Assembly (NCBI GenBank): GCA_949299335.1 | Contig: CASGAD010000014.1 | Coordinates: forward strand, 66,330-130,329 | Direction: 5' to 3' | DNA: 64,000 nucleotides | From: an uncultured bacterium | GTDB taxonomy: Bacteria; Bacillota_I; Bacilli_A; RFN20; CAG-826 | Shown here: piece after piece, positions 3,903 through 51,495 of the stretch | Numbering within the stretch: the first letter of the stretch is position 1 | Layout of the letters: every line of letters begins with the position of its first letter | Position numbers and translations under genes: made by a program | The notes under the pieces: generated by a model | What the model was told of the DNA's origin: nothing | Seen by the model: the letters and a program-made list of their open reading frames with translations, nothing else | The model's database searches: none

Positions 3903-3974
3903 CAATGTCAAAAATAAAAAAGTTCGATTAAATCAGTATTATTTAATTTTTTATATATAATATCAAAAAAATAT

Positions 3975-4295: not shown

Positions 4296-5273
4296 ATGAA
4301 TTTAGGTTTTTTAGGTTGTTCTAAAATCGGAATAAAAATTATTGAGGCACTAAAATCAATTCCTGAAGTGGTTTTATATGGTTGTAGTGCGCAAGATTCT
4401 ATTAGAGCAAAAGAATATAAAGAAAAATATGGTTTTCTTAAAAGCTACGAATCATATGAAGAAATGTTAAACGATCCTAATATTGAATTAGTTTATGTTT
4501 CTACATTAATGAGTACTCACTATAAAGATGTTTTGATGTGTCTAAAGCATAATAAAAGTGTAATAGTAGAAAAAGCTTTTACAATGAATGCCAAAGAAGC
4601 AGATGAGCTATGTTATTATAGTGAAAAACATAATATTTATCTTGGTGAAGCTATTTGGACTAGATATATGCCTAGTAAAGCTATTATTAATAAACTTATT
4701 AAAGATGGCGTTATAGGGGAAGTTTATCATGTTGACGCTAATTTATCATATTCTTTAAAAAATGTTAAAAGATTGACCACTAAAGAGCTTGGTGGAGGTA
4801 TTTTACTTGATGTAGGAGTTTACCCTATTAACTTTTTAACAATGTTTTTTGGCTATGATTTTAAACTTATTAATAGCGTTATGGTCATGAACAAGGAATT
4901 TAATGTTGATGAAAGTGTAATGATAAATGTAGTCTATAAAAACGGATTGACGGCCTCTTTATTTGCTTCAATGAACGGAGTTACTTCTAAAAAAGGAATT
5001 ATTTATGGAAGTAAAGGTTATTTAGAAATTGATGATATAAATAATCCTCATAAGGTTTCTATTTTCGATACATTCAATAAAAGATCACCTGAACTTAGTA
5101 AAGTAATTGAATTTGAAAAGCAGGTGAATGGTTATGAATATGAATTTATAGAAACAATTGAAAATGTTAAAAATCATCAAATTGAGCCAAATTCAATGCT
5201 TCATAGTGAAACATTAAAAATTATGAAAATCATTGATGAAATCAATGAAAAATCGATAAAAGTATATAAGTAG
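4296..5273 (+). CDS. Gfo/Idh/MocA-family NAD(P)-dependent oxidoreductase
   Basis: N-terminal Rossmann pattern LGFLGCSKIG, EKA(F) motif VIVEKAF, typical length of about 325 aa. Confidence 0.8.
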   Translation: MNLGFLGCSKIGIKIIEALKSIPEVVLYGCSAQDSIRAKEYKEKYGFLKSYESYEEMLNDPNIELVYVSTLMSTHYKDVLMCLKHNKSVIVEKAFTMNAKEADELCYYSEKHNIYLGEAIWTRYMPSKAIINKLIKDGVIGEVYHVDANLSYSLKNVKRLTTKELGGGILLDVGVYPINFLTMFFGYDFKLINSVMVMNKEFNVDESVMINVVYKNGLTASLFASMNGVTSKKGIIYGSKGYLEIDDINNPHKVSIFDTFNKRSPELSKVIEFEKQVNGYEYEFIETIENVKNHQIEPNSMLHSETLKIMKIIDEINEKSIKVYK

Positions 5274-5308
5274 TTATTTTATAGTAATTAATTAGTATTA
5301 AATTAGTA
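5260..5308 (+). repeat. Phased TAGTA array 1 (period 11 bp), fills the gap between the oxidoreductase gene and deoC
   Basis: Perfect TAGTA at 5282, 5293 and 5304. Degenerate AAGTA at 5260 and TAGTT at 5271; the latter contains the TAG stop. Confidence 0.7.
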
Positions 5309-14663: not shown

Positions 14664-15350
14664 ATGATTTCTAATAGACTAAAAGCAATTGTTTCATTAA
14701 TAAAAAATGACAATAACATAGCTGATATTGGTAGCGACCATGGTTATGTGCTTTTAGAATTACGTAAAAAAGGCTTTAAGTCGAAATTATTGGGTGTTGA
14801 AAATAAAGAACACCCTTTTTTGCGTTTAAAGAAAAATATTATGGCTAGTGGAATTAAGGATATCGCTTGTAGTTTATCTAATGGATTAGATGCTTTACCT
14901 AATAATTATAAAACCATTGTTATTGCTGGAATGGGATTTGATGTAATAAAAAATATTATTTCTCAAAATATAGATAAATTAGATCATATTACCAATATTG
15001 TTATTGATTCACATACAGATAAAGATAAAGTAAGGCCATATTTTTTATCTTTAGGCTATGATGTAGAAGATGAAACTATAATTTTTGAAGATAATATTTA
15101 TTATGATTTAATTGCATTTATTAAAGTTAATAGTATTCAAAAATACTCTAAGGAAGAATTAGAATTTGGAAAAATTAATTTAAAAGCTAAATCTAGTACT
15201 TTTATTAATATGTTAAATGCTGAAATCGTTAAAAATAATGATATTATTAATAAAATTAACAACAGTAATAGTAAACGAATTAATGAACTTGAAAAGCGTA
15301 ATAATTATTTAAGAGGTATATTAAATGAAAACAAGAGCTCTATTAACTAA
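14664..15350 (+). CDS. trmK: tRNA (adenine22-N1)-methyltransferase TrmK
   Basis: ADIGSDHGY SAM-binding motif. Synteny after sigA (yqfN position). Confidence 0.8.
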   Translation: MISNRLKAIVSLIKNDNNIADIGSDHGYVLLELRKKGFKSKLLGVENKEHPFLRLKKNIMASGIKDIACSLSNGLDALPNNYKTIVIAGMGFDVIKNIISQNIDKLDHITNIVIDSHTDKDKVRPYFLSLGYDVEDETIIFEDNIYYDLIAFIKVNSIQKYSKEELEFGKINLKAKSSTFINMLNAEIVKNNDIINKINNSNSKRINELEKRNNYLRGILNENKSSIN

Positions 15351-16107
15351 ATTATCTAAATTATTTCCTAAAAAAATAGCTGAGGCTTATGATTTTCCTG
15401 GTTTACAGGTTTCAAAATTAAAAGAAGAAACCAATATAATTTTGCTTTGTTTGGACTTTGATGAAGATGTGTTAAATTATATATTAAAAAATAATTTAGA
15501 AAATAAACTCGACTTAATTATCACCCATCATCCATTTATTTTTGGTAAAAAGAAAGAAATTTTAGCTAATGATAATATAAAAAACTATCTTTACCATAAA
15601 ATGGAAGAATTAAATATTCCAATTTATAGTTTTCATACTAACTTTGATAGTGGTGTAAATGGAATGAATGATGCTCTTATTAATAAACTTGAATTATCAA
15701 ATCCTCATAGATTGATTAGTGAGCCTATGGCTTGTGGAGGGGATTTGCCTTATGAAATGACAGTAGAAGAGTTTGCTAAATATGTTTTAGATAAATTAGA
15801 TGTCGATTATGGATTACTCTTAAATTATGGTAGTAAAGTAATAAAAAACGCAGCCATTATTGGTGGAGGTGGATGGAGGAGCTTTAAAGCTGCTCAATTA
15901 GAAAGTTATGATATTTTTATTAGTGGAGATATTCCTCATCATGGTAGAAGAGATGTAGTTGCTAATAAATATAATTATTTAGACCTGCCTCATGAAGTAG
16001 AAAATATTTTTATGGAACAAATGAAAAAAATACTACTATCTTTCGATAGCAGTATCGATGTTATTTCCTTATATCAGGAACAGTTTCCCAAAGTGATTTG
16101 TAAGTGA
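15325..16107 (+). CDS. Nif3-family dinuclear metal-centre protein (YqfO-like)
   Basis: IITHHP motif, HTNFD, C-terminal HH. Synteny after trmK. Confidence 0.8.
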   Translation: MKTRALLTKLSKLFPKKIAEAYDFPGLQVSKLKEETNIILLCLDFDEDVLNYILKNNLENKLDLIITHHPFIFGKKKEILANDNIKNYLYHKMEELNIPIYSFHTNFDSGVNGMNDALINKLELSNPHRLISEPMACGGDLPYEMTVEEFAKYVLDKLDVDYGLLLNYGSKVIKNAAIIGGGGWRSFKAAQLESYDIFISGDIPHHGRRDVVANKYNYLDLPHEVENIFMEQMKKILLSFDSSIDVISLYQEQFPKVICK

Positions 16108-16978
16108 AGTAGTTATAAATATCATTTACAACATTTTGATGAACACTCCCATCAGAAACTAATAATATACGTTTCTCAGATGGGATTTTAATTTGCATAG
16201 CGTCTTTTACATCTTTAACAACGGCATAAAGTATATTTTTAGTAGTTAAGTGGTAGTATTCTAGTAGATATTTGTCATATGATGTAGTATCTGTAATGAA
16301 TATAATGACATCATTATCCTTTAAGTTTTCTTCTAAATTCTTTTTTCTATCGAAGTTTTCATCACTTATTTCATCCTCAATAACAGCATTAGGAAGTAAC
16401 TTACGAAGATAATCTAGGGAGCTATCAAAACTAGAACCAGCAAGTTCAGTTTGATATAAAATATGTGTTTTTGATTTATTGAATTTCTTTTCAGTAATAA
16501 CTGATTTAGCCTTTGCAGCATCATTTACATCATAAAATATAAAACTGAATTTTGATTCATTAGTAAGATAGTTTGCTTCTATTGTATTTGTATTACCAAC
16601 AAAAATAATATTGTATTTTCCTTTAGAATTATTGATAAAATCTAATTTTTTCTTAACATTAGGCGATAGCGTTTCAAAAAATCTAAAATGTTCTTTCTTT
16701 AAAACATTGATAGTTTCATGATCACAGCCATAAGGAGAAGTTAAAACGATTGTATCGTTATTTAAATTCTTTAAAAAATCACTAAAGCCCATTGAAGGAA
16801 TATCGACTACATCAATTCCTAATTGCTTTAATTCTTTTTTAATTGCGTTGGCATTTAATAATCCGCCTAAAAGAATGATTTTCTCATTTGGAAAGTCAAA
16901 ACGTGTTTTTCTAGCTATATTTAGTAAGTTTTCCATTGCTGGAGAATAACCAGCTGGAAGTATTAATGTTGTATCCAT
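16061..16978 (-). CDS. IspH/LytB-like protein that lacks the three [4Fe-4S] cysteine ligands (degenerate paralogue or pseudoenzyme)
   Basis: Collinear with remembered IspH motifs along its whole length: PAGYSPAMENL vs PRGFCAGVDRA, ETLSPNVKK vs DATCPLVTK, EISDENFDRK vs DICYATTNRQ, QTE vs QTT, SDGS vs AGAS. It occupies the position and opposite orientation of B. subtilis ispH (yqfP) next to yqfO. Confidence 0.55.
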   Translation of the reverse strand: MDTTLILPAGYSPAMENLLNIARKTRFDFPNEKIILLGGLLNANAIKKELKQLGIDVVDIPSMGFSDFLKNLNNDTIVLTSPYGCDHETINVLKKEHFRFFETLSPNVKKKLDFINNSKGKYNIIFVGNTNTIEANYLTNESKFSFIFYDVNDAAKAKSVITEKKFNKSKTHILYQTELAGSSFDSSLDYLRKLLPNAVIEDEISDENFDRKKNLEENLKDNDVIIFITDTTSYDKYLLEYYHLTTKNILYAVVKDVKDAMQIKIPSEKRILLVSDGSVHQNVVNDIYNYFTYKSLWETVPDIRK

Positions 16979-18398: not shown

Positions 18399-19292
18399 AT
18401 GGTTTATAAAAGTGATGAATTGTTAATTGGAAGCCATGTTTCAATGAGTGGACCAAGATATTTTTTAGGAAGTGTAGAAGAAAGTATAAAAAATAACGCC
18501 AATACTTTAATGTTTTATACTGGTTCACCTCAATCTATGGCTCGTTCTCCAATTGAAAAATGTAAAATTAAAGAAGCACTCGCTTTAATGAATGAAAAAA
18601 ATATAGATATTAATAAAGTTGTTTGTCATGCGCCATATTTAATAAACTTAGGAAATCCAATTAATTCTGATAAATTCGTTTTTTCTAGAAATTTATTAGC
18701 TAATGAGGTTGATAGATGTCATAGTTTTAATGTTAAACTTTTAGTTTTACATCCAGGCGCCCATTTAGGCATAGGAAATGATGAAGCTATTAAAAATATA
18801 GCTCATGGTATAAACGATGTTTTATCTATGATAGATTACGATATTATAATCTGTTTGGAAACTATGGCTGGTAAAGGAACAGAAGTAGGCTCTAACTTAG
18901 AAGAAATTAAAAAAATCATCGATTTAATCGACAAAAAAGAGAAAATTGGAGTTTGTATTGATACTTGTCATTTAAACGATGCAGGTTATGATTTAAGAGA
19001 TTCAGATGCTTTTTTAAACTATTTTGATGAAGTTATCGGACTAAATTATTTAAAAGTAGTCCATCTAAATGATTCATTAAATTATAAAGGAGCACATAAG
19101 GATCGTCATGCAAATATTGGGTTAGGGACTATAGGATTTGATGTTTTAAGAAATTTTGCTTTTAATCCAAAATTAAAAGATGTTCCTAAAATATTAGAAA
19201 CACCTTATTTTAATGATAAGCCACCTTATAAATTAGAAATAGAAATGATAAGGGATGGAAATTTTATTAAAGAAAAATATTTAAATTTATAA
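18399..19292 (+). CDS. nfo: Endonuclease IV
   Basis: AP-endonuclease family 2 motifs HAPYLINL, LHPG, DTCH and HLNDS. Confidence 0.9.
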   Translation: MVYKSDELLIGSHVSMSGPRYFLGSVEESIKNNANTLMFYTGSPQSMARSPIEKCKIKEALALMNEKNIDINKVVCHAPYLINLGNPINSDKFVFSRNLLANEVDRCHSFNVKLLVLHPGAHLGIGNDEAIKNIAHGINDVLSMIDYDIIICLETMAGKGTEVGSNLEEIKKIIDLIDKKEKIGVCIDTCHLNDAGYDLRDSDAFLNYFDEVIGLNYLKVVHLNDSLNYKGAHKDRHANIGLGTIGFDVLRNFAFNPKLKDVPKILETPYFNDKPPYKLEIEMIRDGNFIKEKYLNL

Positions 19293-20342
19293 TTTATCGA
19301 TTTCTTCGAATAATGTAGGCAATGCATCTTTTTGGCTAACTGTCTTAAGGATCTTGCCTTTTTTAAATATAATAAAAGAATCTTTACCACCAGCTAGTCC
19401 AATATCTGCGTTTTTGCCTTCACCAACGCCATTAACAATGCACCCCATGATAGCAACAGTGATATATTTTTTATTTTTAATTAAATAGTTTAATGTTTCA
19501 TCTGCCATTTTAGCCGTATTTGTAACTTGGCATCTGCCACAAGTTGGACAACTAATAATAGTAGGATAATTTTCATATAATCCTAAATCATGTAATAGTC
19601 TGACACATGTTTTAATTTCTTTTTGAGGATTATGTGTTAATGAAATTCGAATCGTTGATCCTATTCCTTCTAGTATCAAAGGAGCTAAAGCACTAACTGA
19701 ACGAATAATTCCAATTTCATCATAGCCACTTTCTGTAACGCCGATATGAAGTGGATATTGAGTTTTGTTAGCGATTAATCTGTATGCATTTAAGGTTACA
19801 AGTGGATTAGAAGCTTTAACACTTATAACAATGTCATTAAAATTATAGCGTTCAAATATTTTTACATATCTTAAAGCGCTTTCGACTAATTTTTCTTCCT
19901 CACTTAATTGATTATTTTCTACTAAGTCCTTTTCTAAAGATCCTTTGTTAACGCCAATTCTAATTGGAATGTGTTTTTTCTTAGCTAAATCAATGATTGC
20001 CTCTAAACCTTCGATTCCGCCAATATTTCCTGGATTAATTCTAATTTTATCCGCTCCATTTTCCATAGCTAATAAGCCGAGTCTATAGTCAAAATGGATG
20101 TCAGCGACAATAGGAATAGCAATTTGCTTTTTTATCTCTTTTAAAGCTAAGGCATCTTCCTTATCTAGAATACTTACTCTCATTAAATCAGCACCTAAAA
20201 GGGCACATTCATTAATTTCTTTAACAACCTCATCAATTTTACTTGTTTTTATGTCACACATTGATTGAATAGCAATTTTATTATTGCCACCAATTTTTAC
20301 ATTGCCAACGATGACTTGTTTTGTTTTTTCTCTTAAGTTCAT
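19287..20342 (-). CDS. ispG: 4-hydroxy-3-methylbut-2-enyl diphosphate synthase IspG
   Basis: VADIHFDYR, RINPGNIG, IRIGVNKGSLEKDL, CPTCGRC and GCIVNGVGE are all present. Start taken at ATG 20342 (MNLREK). Confidence 0.92.
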   Translation of the reverse strand: MNLREKTKQVIVGNVKIGGNNKIAIQSMCDIKTSKIDEVVKEINECALLGADLMRVSILDKEDALALKEIKKQIAIPIVADIHFDYRLGLLAMENGADKIRINPGNIGGIEGLEAIIDLAKKKHIPIRIGVNKGSLEKDLVENNQLSEEEKLVESALRYVKIFERYNFNDIVISVKASNPLVTLNAYRLIANKTQYPLHIGVTESGYDEIGIIRSVSALAPLILEGIGSTIRISLTHNPQKEIKTCVRLLHDLGLYENYPTIISCPTCGRCQVTNTAKMADETLNYLIKNKKYITVAIMGCIVNGVGEGKNADIGLAGGKDSFIIFKKGKILKTVSQKDALPTLFEEIDKL

Positions 20343-20415
20343 ACACTTATATCTTATTAACTTCGTTAAAATTATACAATACAATAATAAAATAATAGAA
20401 AACTATCACCAAAGG

Positions 20416-22305: not shown

Positions 22306-22343
22306 TACTAATAAACTACTAAATTTCTACTAGTTTTCTACTT
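22306..22343 (-). repeat. Phased TAGTA array 2 (period 11 bp), starting at the plsY stop
   Basis: Plus-strand TACTA at 22306, 22317 and 22328. TACTT at 22339 overlaps the TAG stop of plsY. Confidence 0.7.
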
Positions 22344-23099
22344 TTTGCTTTTATTCCAACCTGCTGTATTTTCCGTATGATTAATAATTTTAATGATGTT
22401 TGATTTGTGTCTATAAACTAATAAAGCGTAGCCTAAAGTTGCTAATACCGGGAAATAAATGCAAGCATGAGGACCATATTCTGAAAGCATAAGATAGCCA
22501 CTAATCGAATTTCCACATGTAGCGAAGATAATATAGACTATCCAAGTAAATAAAACATAAGAGCCACACATTGTTAATGAAGATAAAGATACATATTTTT
22601 TAATTTTTAATGTGATGAAGAATATTGGCATAAAGAATGGAATTGCTGTCCAACTAGTAGAAAGAGCAAATCCACAATAAGTAGCAACAATTTTTCCACC
22701 TTTAAATTTAAGAAATAAACTATATGAGTGGCCAATCATTCCTCCGAAGGCTACCAAGTAATAAGCTAATTCACTTAAAGTATTTCCTTGTCCTAAAGCA
22801 TTAAATTCTTTATTATCACCTAACATGAATGAATTGATGGATTCGACATAAGTAAATAAAAGGAAGGCTACAATGAATGGAACAATTATTTTAAATATAT
22901 CGAGAGTGATAGTAATAATACCAGCTTTTTTAGAAACAACTCTACCAACATTTGTTCCTCCTGTGTTATGACTTCCTGATTCTCTAGGATCAATGCCATA
23001 AAAAATCTTAGAAATTAGTACTCCATTTGGAATGCTTCCAAATAAGTAACCAACCACAAAGCATAAAACTAGTATTAAAAATCTTAAAAAATAAACCAT
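22338..23099 (-). CDS. plsY: Glycerol-3-phosphate acyltransferase PlsY
   Basis: GSIPNG...SGSHNTGGTNVGR motif, multi-TM. Adjacent to parE/parC as in B. subtilis. Confidence 0.88.
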   Translation of the reverse strand: MVYFLRFLILVLCFVVGYLFGSIPNGVLISKIFYGIDPRESGSHNTGGTNVGRVVSKKAGIITITLDIFKIIVPFIVAFLLFTYVESINSFMLGDNKEFNALGQGNTLSELAYYLVAFGGMIGHSYSLFLKFKGGKIVATYCGFALSTSWTAIPFFMPIFFITLKIKKYVSLSSLTMCGSYVLFTWIVYIIFATCGNSISGYLMLSEYGPHACIYFPVLATLGYALLVYRHKSNIIKIINHTENTAGWNKSKK

Positions 23100-25265: not shown

Positions 25266-27946
25266 TGGCTGCAAGAAATAAACCAGTTGAAGAAGAAATT
25301 GTAGAAAATATTAGCGTTGAATCCCTTGATGGAGTCATGGGTGATAGATATGCTATCTACGCAAAATATGTTATTCAAGATAGAGCCATCCCAGATGTTA
25401 GAGATGGTTTAAAGCCAGTTCAACGTAGAATAATTTTTAGTATGTATCAAAATGGTAATACATACGATAAGCCAACAAAAAAATGTGCAAAGATTGTTGG
25501 TGATGTTATGGGTAGATTCCATCCTCATGGAGATACTTCAATTTATGATGCTTTAGTTAGACTATCTCAAAGCTGGAAAATGAGTATGCCATTAGTAACT
25601 TTCCAAGGTAATAATGGTTCAATTGATAATGACCCAGCTGCTGCATACCGTTATACTGAAGCAAAATTAAATGAATTTAGTGAAACTCTTATTAATGACA
25701 TCGAAAAGAATACGGTCGATATGACTTTAAATTTTGATGATACAGAATTTGAGCCTGTTGTTTTGCCTTGTAGATACCCTAATTTATTTGTAAATGGCAG
25801 TGAAGGTATTGCTGTTGCTATCGCTACAGAAATTCCACCTCATAATTTAACTGAAATTTGCGAAGCTGCTATTCATTACATTCAACATCCAAAGTGTTCT
25901 TTAGATGATCTTTTAGAGATTGTTAAAGGGCCTGATTTTCCTACTGGTGGCGTAATTTATGAATGTCAAGGCATAAGGGACATTTATGAAACCGGTAGAG
26001 GAAAAATCGAAATTGCTAGTAAAGTTACAATCGATGACTCTAATAAGAACTATAACGAATTAGTTATTAGTGAAATTCCTTATGGAGTAGTTAAGCAAAA
26101 CCTTGCTTATCAAATCGATAAGATTAAAAAGAGCCATGAAATTGATGGAATTAATGAAGTTAGAGATCTTTCAAGTGGTGATGAAATTAAAATTTGTGTT
26201 GAACTTAAAAAGGAAGTTGATCCTAATATTGTTCTCGCTTATTTGATGAGTAAAACTCAATTAAAAGTATCCTATAGCTCTAATATTGTTGCTATTTGTG
26301 ATAATCATCCTAGAACTTTAGGCCTTTTATCATATTTAGATTATTACACTAAATATCAAATCGATGTTATCACTAGAAAGTTTAATTTTGATTTAAAGAA
26401 AGCTAAAGATAGACTTCATATTGTTGAAGGTTTAATTAAGTCGGTAAGTATTATTAATGAAATCATTGCTATTATTAGAAAAAGTGCTGATAAAGCTGAT
26501 TCAAAGAAAAACTTAATGAATGCCTATGGATTTAGTGAAATTCAAGCTGAAGCCATCGTTACAATGAGATTATATAAACTCTCCAATACAGATGTAAGAA
26601 TCTATGTTGAAGAAAAAGCAGAGTTAGAGAAGACAATTGCTTATTTAGAAGAAACTTTAGCTGATGAAAATAAAATAAGAAAAGTTATCGTTAATGATTT
26701 AAAAGCAATCATTAAGAAATTTGGAATCCCTAGAAGAACAGTCATCGAAACTAAAAAAGATGAAATTCAAATTGATAAGCGTGATTTGATTGTTAAGGAA
26801 GATGTTTACGTGGTTGTTACTAAGGATGGCTATGTAAAAAGAAGTTCTTTAAAGAGTTACAAATCTAGTAATGGGGCTCTTCCTGGAGTTAAGCAAAATG
26901 ATGTAGTTATCATGAATCAAATTGTAAATACTGCTGATTATATCTTAGCTTTTACTAATAAAGGGAATTATATTATCATGCCTGTCCATGAGATATTAGA
27001 AGGTAAGTGGAAAGATGAAGGTAAACACATTAATTATATGTGTAATCTTCCATTACAAGAATCATTAATTAGGTGTATTGTTGTTAAAAACTTTGAAGCA
27101 CCAGCATGTATCGCTATTGTTACAAAGAATTCACAAGTTAAGAAAACCTTATTAAGTGATTTTTACACTACTAGAACATCTAAACCAGTTTGTTGTATGC
27201 GTCTTACAGGTAATGATGAAGTTGCCGATGTTGCAGTGCTCTATGGAAATAGCAATATTTATTTATCTACTGAATCAGGAAGATCAACAACTTACTTTAA
27301 TGAAAATGCTTTCGAACCTACAAAACTTAAAACTTGTGGTGTTAAGGGCATTTCGACCTTGAGTAAGAGCACAATTTCTAGAATGCTAACCTATCGACCA
27401 GGTGAAAAGAGCAAATTAGTCATCGTAACAGATAAAGGATTTGTTAAGATTGCTGATTCTAGTAACTTTGTTTTAACTGATAGATTAGGAAGAACCGGAA
27501 CAATTCTTGAGTCGTTTAAAACTTCACCTCATTTAATGAGATGTTGCTTTAAATTAAAAGGTAAACCAACTGAGCTTACTATTCATTGCTTAATGAAGAG
27601 TGGAGAAATGAAAGATTTCACTATTAAAGATTTCTATTTAACTCCTCAAGATAAACATTGTATAACCAATTTAGAAGGATTTAATAAGGAAAAAGATGTA
27701 ATTGAATACATCTATAACGATGAAGCAGAGGTAATTGAAGCAAATGTTAAAGCTGATGCTCCTATAAAAATGCCTTCTGAAACACCTACCTTAATAAAAA
27801 GTTCACCAAAATCTCAAGAAAATGATATCTTCTACAGTTCAGATAAAAAACAAACTATCAAAATAGTGAAAATTGATGATTCTTCAGAAGAACCAGAAGA
27901 AGAAAATTATGAACAAATCTCCATTTTTGATGAAATGGGTGATTAA
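25265..27946 (+). CDS. parC: DNA topoisomerase IV subunit A, with a roughly 90-aa Ser/Glu-rich C-terminal tail
   Basis: DGLKPVQRR, HPHGD, AAAYRYTE (catalytic Tyr). The ATG overlaps the parE stop. Confidence 0.85.
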   Translation: MAARNKPVEEEIVENISVESLDGVMGDRYAIYAKYVIQDRAIPDVRDGLKPVQRRIIFSMYQNGNTYDKPTKKCAKIVGDVMGRFHPHGDTSIYDALVRLSQSWKMSMPLVTFQGNNGSIDNDPAAAYRYTEAKLNEFSETLINDIEKNTVDMTLNFDDTEFEPVVLPCRYPNLFVNGSEGIAVAIATEIPPHNLTEICEAAIHYIQHPKCSLDDLLEIVKGPDFPTGGVIYECQGIRDIYETGRGKIEIASKVTIDDSNKNYNELVISEIPYGVVKQNLAYQIDKIKKSHEIDGINEVRDLSSGDEIKICVELKKEVDPNIVLAYLMSKTQLKVSYSSNIVAICDNHPRTLGLLSYLDYYTKYQIDVITRKFNFDLKKAKDRLHIVEGLIKSVSIINEIIAIIRKSADKADSKKNLMNAYGFSEIQAEAIVTMRLYKLSNTDVRIYVEEKAELEKTIAYLEETLADENKIRKVIVNDLKAIIKKFGIPRRTVIETKKDEIQIDKRDLIVKEDVYVVVTKDGYVKRSSLKSYKSSNGALPGVKQNDVVIMNQIVNTADYILAFTNKGNYIIMPVHEILEGKWKDEGKHINYMCNLPLQESLIRCIVVKNFEAPACIAIVTKNSQVKKTLLSDFYTTRTSKPVCCMRLTGNDEVADVAVLYGNSNIYLSTESGRSTTYFNENAFEPTKLKTCGVKGISTLSKSTISRMLTYRPGEKSKLVIVTDKGFVKIADSSNFVLTDRLGRTGTILESFKTSPHLMRCCFKLKGKPTELTIHCLMKSGEMKDFTIKDFYLTPQDKHCITNLEGFNKEKDVIEYIYNDEAEVIEANVKADAPIKMPSETPTLIKSSPKSQENDIFYSSDKKQTIKIVKIDDSSEEPEEENYEQISIFDEMGD

Positions 27947-28173
27947 TAAGTAGTAATTATTGTAACTATAAAAATAAATATAGAAGCGATTAAGGCGATT
28001 AAATTGAAGTAAAAAGAGTGCTTAATTTCCAAAGTTTCCATCTTATAAGATTGATAAACTCCAACACATAAAAATGCAATTCCAATAAAAGGAATGAAAA
28101 GTGAAGCACCAGCTCCAATTAATCCCATTAGTTTACTTAAATGTAATTTGCTTTCTAATTTATTATCGTCCAT
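27943..28173 (-). CDS. Hypothetical small membrane protein (76 aa, two TM helices)
   Basis: ORF with two clear hydrophobic helices. Its 3' end overlaps the parC stop by 4 nt. No recognisable family. Confidence 0.45.
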   Translation of the reverse strand: MDDNKLESKLHLSKLMGLIGAGASLFIPFIGIAFLCVGVYQSYKMETLEIKHSFYFNLIALIASIFIFIVTIITTY

Positions 28174-28233: not shown

Positions 28234-28271
28234 TAGTAAATAATTAGTAGTTTATAAGTACTAAATTAGTA
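28234..28271 (+). repeat. Phased TAGTA array 3 (period 11 bp) in the divergent gap upstream of yqeG
   Basis: TAGTA at 28234, 28245 and 28267. AAGTA at 28256. Confidence 0.7.
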
Positions 28272-30982: not shown

Positions 30983-31306
30983 ATGTACCCAAGACTCATT
31001 AATCAAATTAAAAAGGCTATTGAAAGTAAAAAAGGTGAAGACATTAAAATTTATAATGTTAAAGACAAAAATCCATTATTTGATTATGTTATCATTTGCA
31101 CAGGCTTAAATGAGAAAAACATGGATGCAATTACTTCAAATATTGAAGACACTTTGGAAGAACAATCATTTGAAGTAAAAAGTATTGAAGGCTTAGGATC
31201 AAGTGATTGGATTCTAGTTGATTGCTATGATGCAATTGTTCATATTATGTCTCAAAGCTATCGTGAGCATGTTAAATTAGATGAATTAATTAAAAATAAT
31301 AAATAA
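30983..31306 (+). CDS. rsfS: Ribosomal silencing factor RsfS
   Basis: 107 aa. DYVIICTG...WILVDCYDAIVHIM pattern. Confidence 0.9.
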   Translation: MYPRLINQIKKAIESKKGEDIKIYNVKDKNPLFDYVIICTGLNEKNMDAITSNIEDTLEEQSFEVKSIEGLGSSDWILVDCYDAIVHIMSQSYREHVKLDELIKNNK

Positions 31307-31313
31307 GAACATA

Positions 31314-31376
31314 AAAAACTCTACAAGTTATATTTATTTAATAAATTAAATAGGTAATTGTAGAGTTTTATTTTTT
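31314..31376. terminator. Bidirectional terminator-like hairpin with a long loop
   Basis: 13-bp stem AAAAACTCTACAA (31314-31326) pairs with TTGTAGAGTTTTA (31358-31370), T run at 31371-31376. The 31-nt loop is unusually long. Confidence 0.5.
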
Positions 31377-31421
31377 AAGGGAATTATTTAGTAAAAAGGT
31401 AATTGAAGTTATTTAAAATTA

Positions 31422-31449
31422 ACTTCGTATAATATCTATTATGTAATTT
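31422..31449. other. dif: dif-like Xer recombination site (chromosome dimer resolution)
   Basis: ACTTCGTATAA-TATCTA-TTATGTAATTT has the 11-6-11 layout. It matches the remembered B. subtilis dif at 23/28 positions. It lies in the convergent strand-switch gap. Confidence 0.65.
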
Positions 31450-31529
31450 TTTTGAAAATTATTACGATATAATCAATAATATATTAATAATTAAATAATT
31501 TATATTCTGTTGATAATAAAATTAATAAT

Positions 31530-31567
31530 TACTAATAAACTACTAGTTATTTACTAATTTGATACTA
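31530..31567 (-). repeat. Phased TAGTA array 4 (period 11 bp), four perfect units, starting at the stop of the 183-aa ORF
   Basis: Plus-strand TACTA at 31530, 31541, 31552 and 31563. The 18-mer ATTACTAATAAACTACTA (31528-31545) is identical to 22304-22321. Confidence 0.75.
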
Positions 31568-32116
31568 ACAAGAATATAATTTTGTATAATTATTTTTAAT
31601 TTCATCATATTTAAAGTTTAAATTAATTATATTAGAAATAAAATCTCTATAACAATTTAAGATCTTTAAAACAGTATTTTTATTTAAAAATGCGCACGGT
31701 CTAGCATCTTTAATTTTGCCATTTTCTAACTTAAATAAGTCTTTGTGAACAATCTGAATGTTTTGAATTTGAGCATAATATTCATTATCTAAAGATAAAG
31801 AATGAATTATACCTAAGTTAATACCATCTTCGCCATCAAAATAGCATTCATACTTAGTTTTAATAGGGCAAATAAGGACACTATTTTCGTATTCTCCACT
31901 ACTTTTAATAACCACCACTTTAATTGATTTTGCTTCTTTTTTATCATAGTAGCAATTATAGATTTCACCGATTAAAAAGGCTTTTTTGTCTCTATTAAAC
32001 AAGTAATTAGTTGTATATGATAAGGTGGTATTTGCCCGTTCTAATTGCCTAGTTAAAGCATTATTTTTGTCAGATTTAACAAAATATATGTTTTTTTCTT
32101 TAATTTGACTATCCAT
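31565..32116 (-). CDS. Hypothetical protein, weak PemK/MazF-like pattern
   Basis: Good SD AAGGAGAG. GEIY...KVVVI...VLICPIKTK...AQIQNIQIVHKDLF resembles the toxin pattern GD[IV]Y..RP.VV..v.v.PiT..dQirtvdk.Rl. The similarity is weak. Confidence 0.5.
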   Translation of the reverse strand: MDSQIKEKNIYFVKSDKNNALTRQLERANTTLSYTTNYLFNRDKKAFLIGEIYNCYYDKKEAKSIKVVVIKSSGEYENSVLICPIKTKYECYFDGEDGINLGIIHSLSLDNEYYAQIQNIQIVHKDLFKLENGKIKDARPCAFLNKNTVLKILNCYRDFISNIINLNFKYDEIKNNYTKLYSC

Positions 32117-35202: not shown

Positions 35203-36087
35203 TTATTCATCTTTCCAGAACAAATCATACGCCTCTTTTAACTTTTTTTCACTTAAATGTGTGTATATTTGTGTTGTTGAAACTTTTGCGTGTCCTAACA
35301 TTTCCTGGACTGACCTAATTTCTGCCCCATTTTCTAACAAATGAGTAGCAAAAGAATGACGGAGAGTATGTGGATGGATTGATTTTTTAATATTAGCTTT
35401 AGTGGCTAACCTTTTCACAATTAAATAAACCCTTTGTCTAGTAAAATCCTCTCCATGTTCATTAATCATTAATTTTTTTGAATGATTAATATCACGTTTA
35501 TTACGGACATATTTTATGTATTGCTTAATAGCAAATAAAGCTTCTTCTTTAATTGGAATGATCCTTTCAATATCACCCTTTCCAAGAATCTTAACTAGTC
35601 TATCTTCTTCATTAATGTCTTTTAACTTTAAATTAACGAGTTCAGAAACTCTTAATCCACAATAATAGAGTAAATCAATGATTACTTTTTCTTCTAAACC
35701 ATCACTTGTAGTTAAATCAGGAGCATTTAATAATTCTTTAATCTCGTCTTGAGTTAAATAAGTAGGTAATAGTTTTTCCTTTTTTATTCTTTCAACAGGC
35801 CCGCTAATTAAATTATGTTTTATATCTTCTTTTTCTAAAAATATATAAAAATTTTTAATGGTTGATATTCTTCTTTCTATTGAGCTAGCTTTTAATGAGT
35901 CTAATGACATTTTAAAACTAAATTCGATTAGTAAATTCTCATTTAAATCATTTACTTCTTCTAGATAAGGAAAATATTTCAAAAAGCATTTAAAGTCGTC
36001 TTTATAATCAATTAAGGTTATGTTTGATAAACCCTTTTCAAACTGGAGATAATAAAAGTATTTATCCAATGCTTCGTTTAATTTCAT
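35203..36087 (-). CDS. xerD: Tyrosine recombinase, XerC/XerD family
   Basis: RVSEL...HPHTLRHSFATHLLENGAEIRSVQEMLGH...TQIYTH catalytic motifs. 3.8 kb from the dif-like site. The C-versus-D assignment is tentative. Confidence 0.8.
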   Translation of the reverse strand: MKLNEALDKYFYYLQFEKGLSNITLIDYKDDFKCFLKYFPYLEEVNDLNENLLIEFSFKMSLDSLKASSIERRISTIKNFYIFLEKEDIKHNLISGPVERIKKEKLLPTYLTQDEIKELLNAPDLTTSDGLEEKVIIDLLYYCGLRVSELVNLKLKDINEEDRLVKILGKGDIERIIPIKEEALFAIKQYIKYVRNKRDINHSKKLMINEHGEDFTRQRVYLIVKRLATKANIKKSIHPHTLRHSFATHLLENGAEIRSVQEMLGHAKVSTTQIYTHLSEKKLKEAYDLFWKDE

Positions 36088-37291: not shown

Positions 37292-37329
37292 TACTAAATA
37301 ACTACTAGTTATATACTAATTATTTACTT
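37292..37329 (-). repeat. Phased TAGTA array 5 (period 11 bp), fills the xseB-dinB gap
   Basis: Plus-strand TACTA at 37292, 37303 and 37314. TACTT at 37325 overlaps the xseB TAA stop. Confidence 0.7.
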
Positions 37330-48585: not shown

Positions 48586-51495
48586 TTAGTCATTAATTCC
48601 GCTAAATACAGCTTCTTCTGGGCCTTCTTCACTAGCAACTACTTTATTTTTCTTCTTTGTATCTTTCTTTTTAATAGTCATTTTGCCTTTTAACTTAGCA
48701 AATTCTTTAGTAAAGATTATTTCTAATGGCAATTGTAATGATTTAACAAATATACAAAGTAGTATCATACCTAAAAGGATAAGTCCTAAAGTATATTGAT
48801 CAAATGCTGTTGAGAAGAAGAATGAGATAACTGCGAAAGCTGAAAGTGCTGTGGCAACAAGAATATAACTATAGTTAATATTTGTAACATAATTATATTC
48901 TGTTTCTCTAACATCTAATTCAAACAATCTATGTTTATTTTCTTTATAATAAAGTTTTTCGGCTGAGTAATAAATATCAAGCATAATGTAGCCTAAGATA
49001 CTTAATAATAATAAGCCTAAGCTAATTTCACTAGTGAATGGCCCTCTAATTAATGAGAAGATACCAGCAACACTAGTCAAGGTTGCTCCAACTATAATAA
49101 CTCCACTTAAAGCTTTTGATGGGCCATATCTTAATAAGAAGTAAATTAAGGTTGCACCTAAAGATATTGCGCAAGCTATTAATACGTAAAGATTAATGTT
49201 ATCATCTCTAACGTCATAGACTTTTTCAATAGAAACAATATAGTTTGTGCCTAAATTTGCCTTTTCTTGAATAGCTACACTAATTGCTTCTTCAGCTGTT
49301 AAGGCATTATCATATCCTTCAACATAATAAATACCTTCGTTAGATTCTGTGTCAATTATTGTGTTTAAATCAACATAGAAATAAACTTCTCTATTGGTGA
49401 TAATGGAACTTGAGCTTTCACTAAAGTTGTAATCATAATAGAAATAATCGACTGTAAGCTTATTTTTGAATGCCTTTGTAGTTAAATCTTTATCAGTATA
49501 AATGTTATCAAAGGCATTTTGAACTTTAATTGAGTTAGCTGCAATATCATATTTTGCATTACTATTTTTAATGTTATATGTAATGACTGCTCTTGAATCT
49601 AATTCATTAGAGCCAGCATTATAAATATTGCCATTAATCGATTGGAAAGTAATTAATCCAACAATGCTTGCTAATGTTAAGACACTAGTAACAATACCAA
49701 CAATTTTAAATGTTGACTTAGGAGTTTTCTTTTTAAATGATTCAAGATAAGAAGATTTAACATCTTTACTTAAATCAGCGGTAACTTTTGTATCAATTGC
49801 AAATTGCTTGATATGATTTTGAGCATAAGCTGAGTTATATAAGAACCAACTTACACCTCTAAAGGCAACTATATTAATAACAATTGTGAAAGCACTGCCT
49901 AATAAAGTTATTGCACCAAATGCAGAAATAACTGAACTTGGAATTAAGTAACAAGTTAATCCAATAATTGCACCTATTGCTGAGAAGCCAATAATATTCA
50001 TTGAAGTCTTTTTATTAGCTTCTTGATATGCTTTTTTAAGAGATTTACCTGCGTAAATTTCTGTTTTTGCTTTTGATAACCATATAGATACACCAAATGT
50101 TGCAATCAAACTTACACTAAGTAAGCCTAAAATGGTACCAATATTGAATTCATTACCTAAAACATTAAATACACTTAAACTTGAAATTATACTGCCTAAA
50201 ACAGTAATAATGCCTATAATTCCAGCTGTACCATAGTTAACTAACAAGAATAATGAACAAATTATAACTGCTACTAATGTAGAAATTAAAACTGTAGATT
50301 CTAAATTAACTGTGCCTGCTCTTTTAATATATTCGATGAATGGAGAAACAATATTTGTTCCATCACTTACTTCGGATTGATTGATTAAAGTAATTTCATA
50401 ACGTAAATTTGAAGAATTTAATTCGTTACAGAATAATGTTGCTTTTTTATATGCCAATCTATCATCTTCTTCAATTGTGTTATAGATTTTATAACTAGTT
50501 GTAACATCAATTGGCTTATCACCATCATTAATTGCGCCTAAATTGTAGTATTGGAAGTAAACTTCATCATAAACTTCAGCTTTTTGATCTTCTTCACTTA
50601 AAGTTGAATCATAATTCCAATAGAAACTTGCTGGATTTGATAAATCAAAGAATGTAACAACATAATCTGATAAATTGGAGTCATCAATATTTTTATCATC
50701 ATTTGATAACATATCGCTTAAGTCTAATCCTGATAACCAGTTATTGACAACGAATAAGACTTTACTTTTATCAAGTTTAGTAACTTCTTCGGCTTCAGAA
50801 TCATCGCCTGTAGTATCATCTGTTGTTGTTGATTCATCAGTCGTAACTGTTGAGTCATCAGCTTTTTGAACATTTTCTTTAAATCCAAACTTATTGTAAT
50901 TTGCACTTGAAGTTGAAGAATCTGTGCTTGAAGACATTTCGTCAACAGTAGATTTGAAGTCTTCTGGATTAGTTAATGTTACTACTACATAAGGATAACC
51001 ATTTAAATATTCTACTCTAGCGCTATTTTCAACAAATACTGGCTCAACAGTTGTATCACCAGCTAATACTTGAGTAGCATCTCTACCCATGTTATAAGTT
51101 TCTTCATAGTCCTTAATCATGATAGAGTTACTGAAAGTTAAATAATTAATAACATCATCATAATCGTTTAATGTATCTTTGAAGGTTAAACTCAAAGTAT
51201 CATCCCCGATTGTTTCAAGCTTATATTCACTAATTTCTGCACTATCTAATCTAGATTTAAATTCTTCTGTAACTTCTTCTAAGTAAGTCACATCAGGATC
51301 TAAACTTGTTGCAGGATTTTCAGTTCCGCTTGAGAAGTCATTGTTTGTCTTTCTTTCAGAAATTTTGAAAACAAAATTTCTAGATGTTGAGTAATCACTA
51401 TTTCCGTTTGTTGATAGAATAGTAGGAACTACTCCAACCAACACTGCAGTGAATAATGACGCACACATCGAAATATAACCTATAAATCTCTTCAT
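48586..51495 (-). CDS. secDF: Protein translocase subunit SecDF (fused), with an expanded extracytoplasmic domain
   Basis: Two 6-TM SecD/SecF modules. 969 aa. SD AAGAGG. Confidence 0.85.
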   Translation of the reverse strand: MKRFIGYISMCASLFTAVLVGVVPTILSTNGNSDYSTSRNFVFKISERKTNNDFSSGTENPATSLDPDVTYLEEVTEEFKSRLDSAEISEYKLETIGDDTLSLTFKDTLNDYDDVINYLTFSNSIMIKDYEETYNMGRDATQVLAGDTTVEPVFVENSARVEYLNGYPYVVVTLTNPEDFKSTVDEMSSSTDSSTSSANYNKFGFKENVQKADDSTVTTDESTTTDDTTGDDSEAEEVTKLDKSKVLFVVNNWLSGLDLSDMLSNDDKNIDDSNLSDYVVTFFDLSNPASFYWNYDSTLSEEDQKAEVYDEVYFQYYNLGAINDGDKPIDVTTSYKIYNTIEEDDRLAYKKATLFCNELNSSNLRYEITLINQSEVSDGTNIVSPFIEYIKRAGTVNLESTVLISTLVAVIICSLFLLVNYGTAGIIGIITVLGSIISSLSVFNVLGNEFNIGTILGLLSVSLIATFGVSIWLSKAKTEIYAGKSLKKAYQEANKKTSMNIIGFSAIGAIIGLTCYLIPSSVISAFGAITLLGSAFTIVINIVAFRGVSWFLYNSAYAQNHIKQFAIDTKVTADLSKDVKSSYLESFKKKTPKSTFKIVGIVTSVLTLASIVGLITFQSINGNIYNAGSNELDSRAVITYNIKNSNAKYDIAANSIKVQNAFDNIYTDKDLTTKAFKNKLTVDYFYYDYNFSESSSSIITNREVYFYVDLNTIIDTESNEGIYYVEGYDNALTAEEAISVAIQEKANLGTNYIVSIEKVYDVRDDNINLYVLIACAISLGATLIYFLLRYGPSKALSGVIIVGATLTSVAGIFSLIRGPFTSEISLGLLLLSILGYIMLDIYYSAEKLYYKENKHRLFELDVRETEYNYVTNINYSYILVATALSAFAVISFFFSTAFDQYTLGLILLGMILLCIFVKSLQLPLEIIFTKEFAKLKGKMTIKKKDTKKKNKVVASEEGPEEAVFSGIND

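Follow-up and report, generated by a model that had tools for sequence, protein, structure and literature searches.

A 28-bp sequence on the plus strand of the analyzed DNA, ACTTCGTATAATATCTATTATGTAATTT (positions 31422–31449), very likely serves as the chromosomal dif site in an uncultured Bacilli bacterium of low GC content and standard genetic code. There is a very high probability, too, that the two replication arms meet either at this site or no more than a few hundred bp from it. Read as dif, it is an ordinary Firmicutes-type site and a feature of an already known kind. The window (the whole 64-kb stretch of DNA that was analyzed) has a G+C content of ~28% and is densely filled with housekeeping genes.

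Sequence of the dif site and its match to known sites

The 28-mer has the 11-6-11 Xer layout that a first-pass annotation of this DNA had assigned to these positions. It is composed of a XerC-type left arm (ACTTCGTATAA, 31422–31432), a central hexamer (TATCTA, 31433–31438), and a XerD-type right arm (TTATGTAATTT, 31439–31449). Its inner bases are ATAA and TTAT, and the arms have asymmetric outer halves, like those of B. subtilis dif. A search that allowed up to three mismatches found one copy in the 64-kb window, and the site is also single when ~20 kb of flanking sequence is included; a search of shuffled sequence for the 28-mer gave zero matches.

The site was compared with entries in the survey by Kono et al. 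2011 (PMC3025954), which was limited to genomes that conserve both XerC and XerD. The experimentally confirmed dif of B. subtilis listed there (ACTTCCTAGAATATATATTATGTAAACT) is the same as the sequence that the first-pass annotation had given, and alignment reproduced its count of 23 identical positions out of 28. After it, the window's best candidate differs from B. subtilis dif at nine positions. Identity is 19/28 to E. coli dif (GGTGCGCATAATGTATATTATGTTAAAT) and 25/28 to the site that the survey predicted for L. rhamnosus GG (ACTTCGTATAATATATATTATGTAAACT).

Alignment to Firmicutes dif sites had been proposed in the annotation as a check. A position weight matrix was built from the 33 distinct Firmicutes sites in the supplement of that survey (PMC3025954). 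Both strands of the window were scanned (128 kb), with 30 first-order Markov simulations of the window as the null. The 28-mer scored 23.2 bits and was the best position in the window by far, the runner-up on either strand scoring 3.4; the top score over all 30 simulated windows was 15.3 bits. The reference sites score 24.0–40.7 bits on their own matrix, a range that the 28-mer falls slightly under because its central hexamer contains a C and because TT stands at positions 26–27, at the outer end of the XerD arm, where the window site has TTT and the references have ACT.

GC skew and gene orientation at the probable terminus

The site is located in a convergent intergenic gap (31307–31564) that also holds the switch in GC skew. 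This 258-bp gap had been described as free of open reading frames, which is borne out in that none of 20 or more amino acids lies wholly inside it. There were also no Rfam matches in the gap at the gathering threshold or at E values up to 1, no tRNA, and no sigma-70 promoter matches above the level expected from shuffled sequence. Transcription converges on the gap as the annotation had noted, with 29 of 33 genes on the plus strand to its left and 26 of 26 on the minus strand to its right. The four left-side exceptions were listed correctly as well, and comprise a weak LytB/IspH match (16061–16978), GcpE/IspG (19287–20384), PlsY (22338–23099), and a 76-aa ORF (27943–28173), all on the minus strand.

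Cumulative G–C climbs from the first base of the window until it peaks at 31408, inside the gap and at a distance of 14 bp from dif, after which it drops to the end of the window. The plateau, taken as all positions within 10 counts of the maximum, spans 31307–31893. G is in excess on the plus strand to the left and on the minus strand to the right, which is the pattern of converging forks and not of an origin. The reading of this region as a replication terminus is thus upheld within the window, and relatives agree: at loci L003, L005, and L007, the maximum of cumulative skew falls within ~100 bp of each genome's own dif.

First codon positions contribute most of the skew in the window, and the skew therefore partly restates gene orientation. 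Since orientation switches at the same place as the skew, the two lines of evidence are not fully independent. Two less dependent measures both agree with a terminus. Intergenic skew on the plus strand is +0.17 to the left of the gap and −0.25 to the right, and coding-strand skew at third codon positions is −0.29 in the four lagging-strand genes versus −0.11 in their leading-strand neighbors.

Guide motifs of the KOPS type were considered and rejected as independent evidence. GAAGAAG, the guide motif of L. lactis according to a reference cited in PMC5357621, is directed toward the dif site in 35 of its 38 copies in the window, a polarity that is confounded with gene orientation. Because GAAGAAG codes for Glu-Glu and the direction of nearly all genes is that of replication, the two effects are inseparable. 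Apart from GAAGAAG, the E. coli guide motif GGGNAGGG was searched for and is absent from the window.

Conservation of the site in related genomes

Relatives were obtained through homologs of the recombinase encoded in the window, and more were added by a genome scan and by look-ups of homologs of orf183, the gene on the right side of the gap. The recombinases of the first relatives are 67%, 55%, and 52% identical to that of the window, and gene order in these genomes is xseAB-dinB-xer-deoB-...-orf183 / gap / rsfS-yqeK-yhbY-yqeH-yqeG-parC. Ten lineages have the order parC...rsfS / site / orf183...deoB-xerD, with Xer proteins that are ~50%–67% identical.

An alignment of these ten lineages shows a conserved block that coincides with the 28-mer from its first base to its final one. 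The mean majority fraction reaches 0.94 within the 28-mer compared to 0.61 and 0.65 in the two flanks, and by part it is 0.99 and 0.92 in the arms and 0.90 in the central hexamer. One relative (L007) keeps both arms and has a different central hexamer, TGATTA. The same locus carries the sequence AGTTTACATAC ~45 bp upstream of its dif (around 14745–14755), which agrees at 10 of 11 positions with the consensus XerD arm in reverse complement (TTATGTAAACT); this may be the scar of an older site or may have arisen by chance.

A syntenic lineage (L152, 5830–6720, and L153) has no xer gene between dinB and deoB and also no dif in the gap. No dif-like site was found in the gap at this locus, where the best score on the dif matrix is −0.1, and the sequence TCGTATA there is a possible remnant of a left arm. 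The joint absence of gene and site fits a functional pairing of the two, in a single case. The orf183 homolog in this lineage reads through an in-frame TGA, and the lineage therefore probably uses genetic code 4.

Outside the 28-mer, an A-rich run followed by CGATA(T/A) occurs 16–18 bp past the XerD arm (ACGATATAAT, plus strand, 31464–31473). It is semi-conserved in six lineages (the window, L005, L007, L010, L049, and L101), changed in L003 and L059, and missing in L085. Either an accessory site or something −10-like could account for this element, within 31450–31473.

DNA of the window's organism occurs in both ENA and Logan assemblies, and the junction at dif is backed by several independent ones. 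At the left end of the window, scaffold_154 of ENA assembly ERZ16268168 ends at about window position 3905, and scaffold_194 has the first 3.9 kb; the window therefore comes from a longer assembly that bridges both scaffolds.

The same arms in other genomes and viral contigs

We searched one genome per species for the arms alone, using the pattern ACTTCGTATAA-N6-TTATGTA, and recovered at least 119 genome stretches with one match per stretch. Hosts among the matches listed include Lactobacillaceae, Trichococcus, Erysipelotrichaceae, Coprobacillaceae, and several assemblies named "Bacilli bacterium," and further hosts among them are Methylophilaceae, Gemmatimonadota, and Longimicrobium. Even in genomes with 60%–70% G+C, the dif consensus persists at the positions left unspecified by the pattern, with T(A/G)T..A and AA(A/C/G)T. 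Skew was evaluated at 40 loci among the matches listed that have the site at least 2.5 kb from both ends: the sign change was of terminus type at 25, of origin type at 0, and absent at 15. The arms recur at terminus-type skew changes, and the window site therefore belongs to a widespread family of terminus sites.

The same dif arms are present in 17 viral contigs from IMG/VR (L128–L144). Most of these have unusual central hexamers, among them CGTGAA, TCAAAG, and CAGATG. This is what one would expect either of elements integrating through Xer recombination or of host DNA inside prophage calls.

Two of the Lactobacillaceae loci, from Lacticaseibacillus chiayiensis (L015, 3670–5476) and Lactobacillus gigeriorum (L038, 4165–6040), have a full-length XerS-family gene (NCBIfam XerS 444 and 459 bits, cutoff 267), with a classical XerCD-type site of 28 bp, ACTTCGTATAATATATATTATGTAAA[CG]T, lying 0.7–0.8 kb away. 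At about nine other Lactobacillaceae loci, the same arrangement of XerS by a classical site is suggested by weaker tblastn matches.

A XerD-like recombinase encoded near the site

The annotation had placed a XerC/D-family recombinase gene 3.8 kb from the site, and this gene is confirmed at 35203–36087 on the minus strand, 3754 bp from dif. Its 294-aa product is a XerD-like tyrosine recombinase with a SAM-like N domain and a Phage_integrase domain (Pfam). The catalytic R...HxxR...H...Y motifs are all present in an alignment to E. coli XerD, which is also the nearest solved structure (1a0p, E = 7e-42). NCBIfam models gave 295 bits for XerD (cutoff 329.6), 269 for XerC, and 98 for XerS (cutoff 267), which leaves the protein under the equivalog cutoffs of both XerD and XerC. 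It is the likely partner of the XerD arm.

A xer gene is found 1–6 kb from the site across the clade, out to Erysipelotrichaceae. Because xer stands beside deoB over this same range, the short distance to dif belongs to the region's general synteny. No second Xer gene (xerC) and no ftsK were found in the window and ~10 kb past each end (~85 kb in total).

Genes and other features around the gap

The plus-strand block that runs up to 31306 has the order parE-parC-yqeG-yqeH-yhbY-yqeK-rsfS, in which parC and parE were identified by NCBIfam and yqeK has an HD domain. It ends at the gap with rsfS (30983–31306, plus strand; Pfam RsfS, E = 4e-27). From 31565 onward, the minus-strand genes are, in order, orf183, an ABC permease, a probable lipoprotein, a phosphopentomutase, the tyrosine recombinase, dinB, xseB, xseA, and nusB. 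Farther to the right, a 969-aa ORF (48586–51495, minus strand) has no Pfam family at E values up to 0.001, with a marginal SecD/SecF match at E = 1.3.

The gene orf183 (31565–32116, minus strand, 183 aa) ends at the gap on the side of the XerD arm. It had zero matches in Pfam (E up to 10), NCBIfam, and PDB sequence and profile searches, and its family is very small, with 24 representatives among 1.84 billion proteins. A single-sequence AlphaFold model was useless (pLDDT 35), and an alignment of 22 sequences gave a usable one (pLDDT 79). The top Foldseek matches of this model in the PDB are all MazF/PemK toxins (E ~4e-4, target-normalized TM 0.6–0.76), relative to which it carries an additional N-terminal helix. 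The predicted fold thus resembles MazF/PemK endoribonuclease toxins. No antitoxin-like gene was found upstream of orf183. Homologs lie directly beside dif at loci L028, L049, L078, L101, and L154.

Just past rsfS, an AT-rich hairpin (AAAACTCTACAA ... TTGTAGAGTTTT, 31314–31376) is flanked by a run of A at one end and a run of T at the opposite end. The annotation had called it bidirectional, and it does fold far better than shuffled sequence on both strands, with z-scores of −4.1 on the plus strand and −3.8 on the minus strand and a U-tract in each direction. Because of its AT-rich stem and long loop, it escaped a scan for consensus terminators. Three relatives (L003, L059, and L010) have a hairpin of other sequence at the same place. 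We conclude that this hairpin is probably a bidirectional intrinsic terminator of the yqeG-rsfS operon.

Two kinds of repeats lie between the hairpin and the site or overlap them. The inverted repeat GAAGTTA-N8-TAACTTC (31405–31426), which overlaps the left arm, exists as the annotation had pointed out, but carries no meaning. The window has one 7-bp inverted repeat of this kind for every 372 bp, and the gap alone has three; being at chance frequency and absent from relatives, it is therefore attributed to chance, and a role as an extra half-site or hairpin was rejected. There is also a direct repeat, TAAA(T/A)AGGTAATTG(T/A)AG..., whose two copies (31347–31370 and 31392–31415) are 79% identical and 45 bp apart, one in the 3′ arm of the hairpin and the other in the DNA just left of dif. 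This repeat is probably due to chance.

Periodic TAGTA arrays

Five intergenic arrays in the window contain four to five units each of (Y)TAGTA(R)-N4 at a strict period of 11 bp. They are at 5260–5308 (plus), 22306–22343 (minus), 28234–28271 (plus), 31530–31567 (minus; array 4), and 37292–37329 (minus). Perfect triples occur five times at period 11 and at no other period from 8 to 20, and none occurred in 200 Markov simulations. Array 4 has four units on a strict 11-bp period, the first of which includes the TAG stop codon of orf183; the stop codon of the upstream gene falls inside a unit in at least three arrays. Successive TAGs fall in each of the three frames, and TAGTAG or TAGTAA is the sequence of many units. 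The sense of the array follows the gene just upstream in all five cases, including that of the lagging-strand gene plsY.

Arrays are also found in relatives (L003, L007, L059, L085, L101, and L152) and are conserved at the orf183 end. They are absent from the Erysipelotrichaceae and Coprobacillus loci, and no Rfam match was found. At L152, the array follows yqeK and so is on the other side of the gap. A role as polar Ter-like fork-trap sites was rejected, given that orientation tracks the adjacent gene and not replication and given the position of the array in L152. In this lineage, the TAGTA array is an element of intergenic DNA in general, with no specificity for dif. Array 4 is one of five and follows gene orientation, and therefore is neither part of dif nor a fork trap: the array described as bracketing the site is real, and its association with dif is not sustained.

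Proposed function and alternative explanations

By analogy with the established XerCD/dif model, each 11-bp arm would be bound by one tyrosine recombinase. The two dif sites of a chromosome dimer would be brought together at the closing septum, and the dimer would be resolved to monomers by strand exchanges where the 6-bp central region borders the arms. The probable partner of the right arm is the XerD-like enzyme encoded 3.75 kb away, and a XerC-type partner and an FtsK/SpoIIIE-type translocase would be expected elsewhere in the genome. The hairpin past rsfS probably halts the yqeG-rsfS transcript ahead of dif.

The two-recombinase model is taken as the default because the arms are asymmetric like those of B. 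subtilis dif and identical to those predicted for L. rhamnosus GG. It is unlikely, though conceivable, that the site is instead served by the XerD-like recombinase alone, as in the XerS/difSL, XerH/difH, and XerA systems, with no XerC/XerD pair. The single Xer gene seen in ~85 kb would agree with such an arrangement, yet this count covers a small part of the genome. The short distance of 1–6 kb between xer and the site across the clade, out to Erysipelotrichaceae, points the same way until it is set against the xerD-deoB linkage, which reflects regional synteny and not specific adjacency to the site. A sole recombinase would also suit a protein that falls under both the XerC and the XerD equivalog cutoffs, and the joint loss of gene and site in L152/L153. 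The arms themselves argue for a pair: their asymmetry equals that of the B. subtilis arms (by eye, each site has 6 palindromic positions out of 11), and the L. rhamnosus GG prediction with identical arms comes from a survey of genomes with XerC and XerD (PMC3025954). In a looser version of the sole-recombinase arrangement, the adjacent MazF-fold gene might also be part of a terminus module.

With a two-recombinase dif as the preferred reading, the remaining explanations question whether the site is a resident dif at all. The 17 IMG/VR contigs with the same arms indicate that elements carrying such sites exist, and the 28-mer might in principle be an attachment site or scar left by a Xer-integrating element (IMEX or phage). 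We consider this very improbable: the window has one site and no second flanking copy, the neighbors are housekeeping genes with no phage or mobile-element genes among them, the site occupies the same position in ten lineages, and it lies at the skew switch. Nor do we class it as an attachment site, given the one copy and those neighbors. A region that is 75% A+T, with 86 low-grade inverted-repeat pairs in 371 bp, could also produce a near-palindrome by chance, in which case the strand switch would merely be an operon boundary. The probability of this is negligible, and conservation and the matrix results already refute it. The 28-mer is a sharply bounded conserved block with a score far above the null distribution, shuffled sequence gave no matches, and the arms recur at skew switches in unrelated genomes.

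Significance and comparison with known systems

With the dif site, the replication terminus of an uncultured Bacilli lineage with a small genome is fixed in place, together with its dimer-resolution site. It can be used for orienting and closing metagenome-assembled genomes, for estimating growth rate from coverage (peak-to-trough ratio), and for spotting elements that integrate at dif. The Xer/dif field gains no new biology from the site; the more unusual features beside it are the TAGTA arrays with their strict period and the MazF-fold orphan gene, a constant neighbor of dif.

The recombinases of B. subtilis are RipX (XerD) and CodV (XerC). The window site resembles the dif of B. subtilis and other Firmicutes in its 28-bp 11-6-11 layout, in its left arm (ACTTC...ATAA) and right arm (TTATGTAA), in its position at the point where GC skew shifts, and in the presence of a XerD-like recombinase in the genome. 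It differs from B. subtilis dif in the central hexamer, which is TATCTA here and TATATA there, and at the outer end of the XerD arm, which is TTT here and ACT there. A further difference is that xerD is only 3.75 kb from dif here, whereas Kono et al. 2011 (PMC3025954) report xerD genes to be usually nearer the origin.

Residues RQ..QQ of E. coli XerD contact FtsK (reviewed in PMC5357621) and, by eye, are not conserved in the C-terminus of the window recombinase. The E. coli dif site, which is served by XerC, XerD, and FtsK, has the same architecture and the same inner arm bases as the window site, and differs in the outer left arm (ACTTCGT here, GGTGCGC there).

In streptococci and lactococci, difSL is an atypical 31-bp site directly beside xerS, and XerS has ~356 aa. 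The window shares with this system a recombinase gene near the chromosomal resolution site at the terminus. We did not assign it to the XerS/difSL class, as the site is a classical 28-mer and not a 31-bp difSL, and lies 3.75 kb from the gene of a 294-aa recombinase that scores 98 bits against the XerS cutoff of 267.
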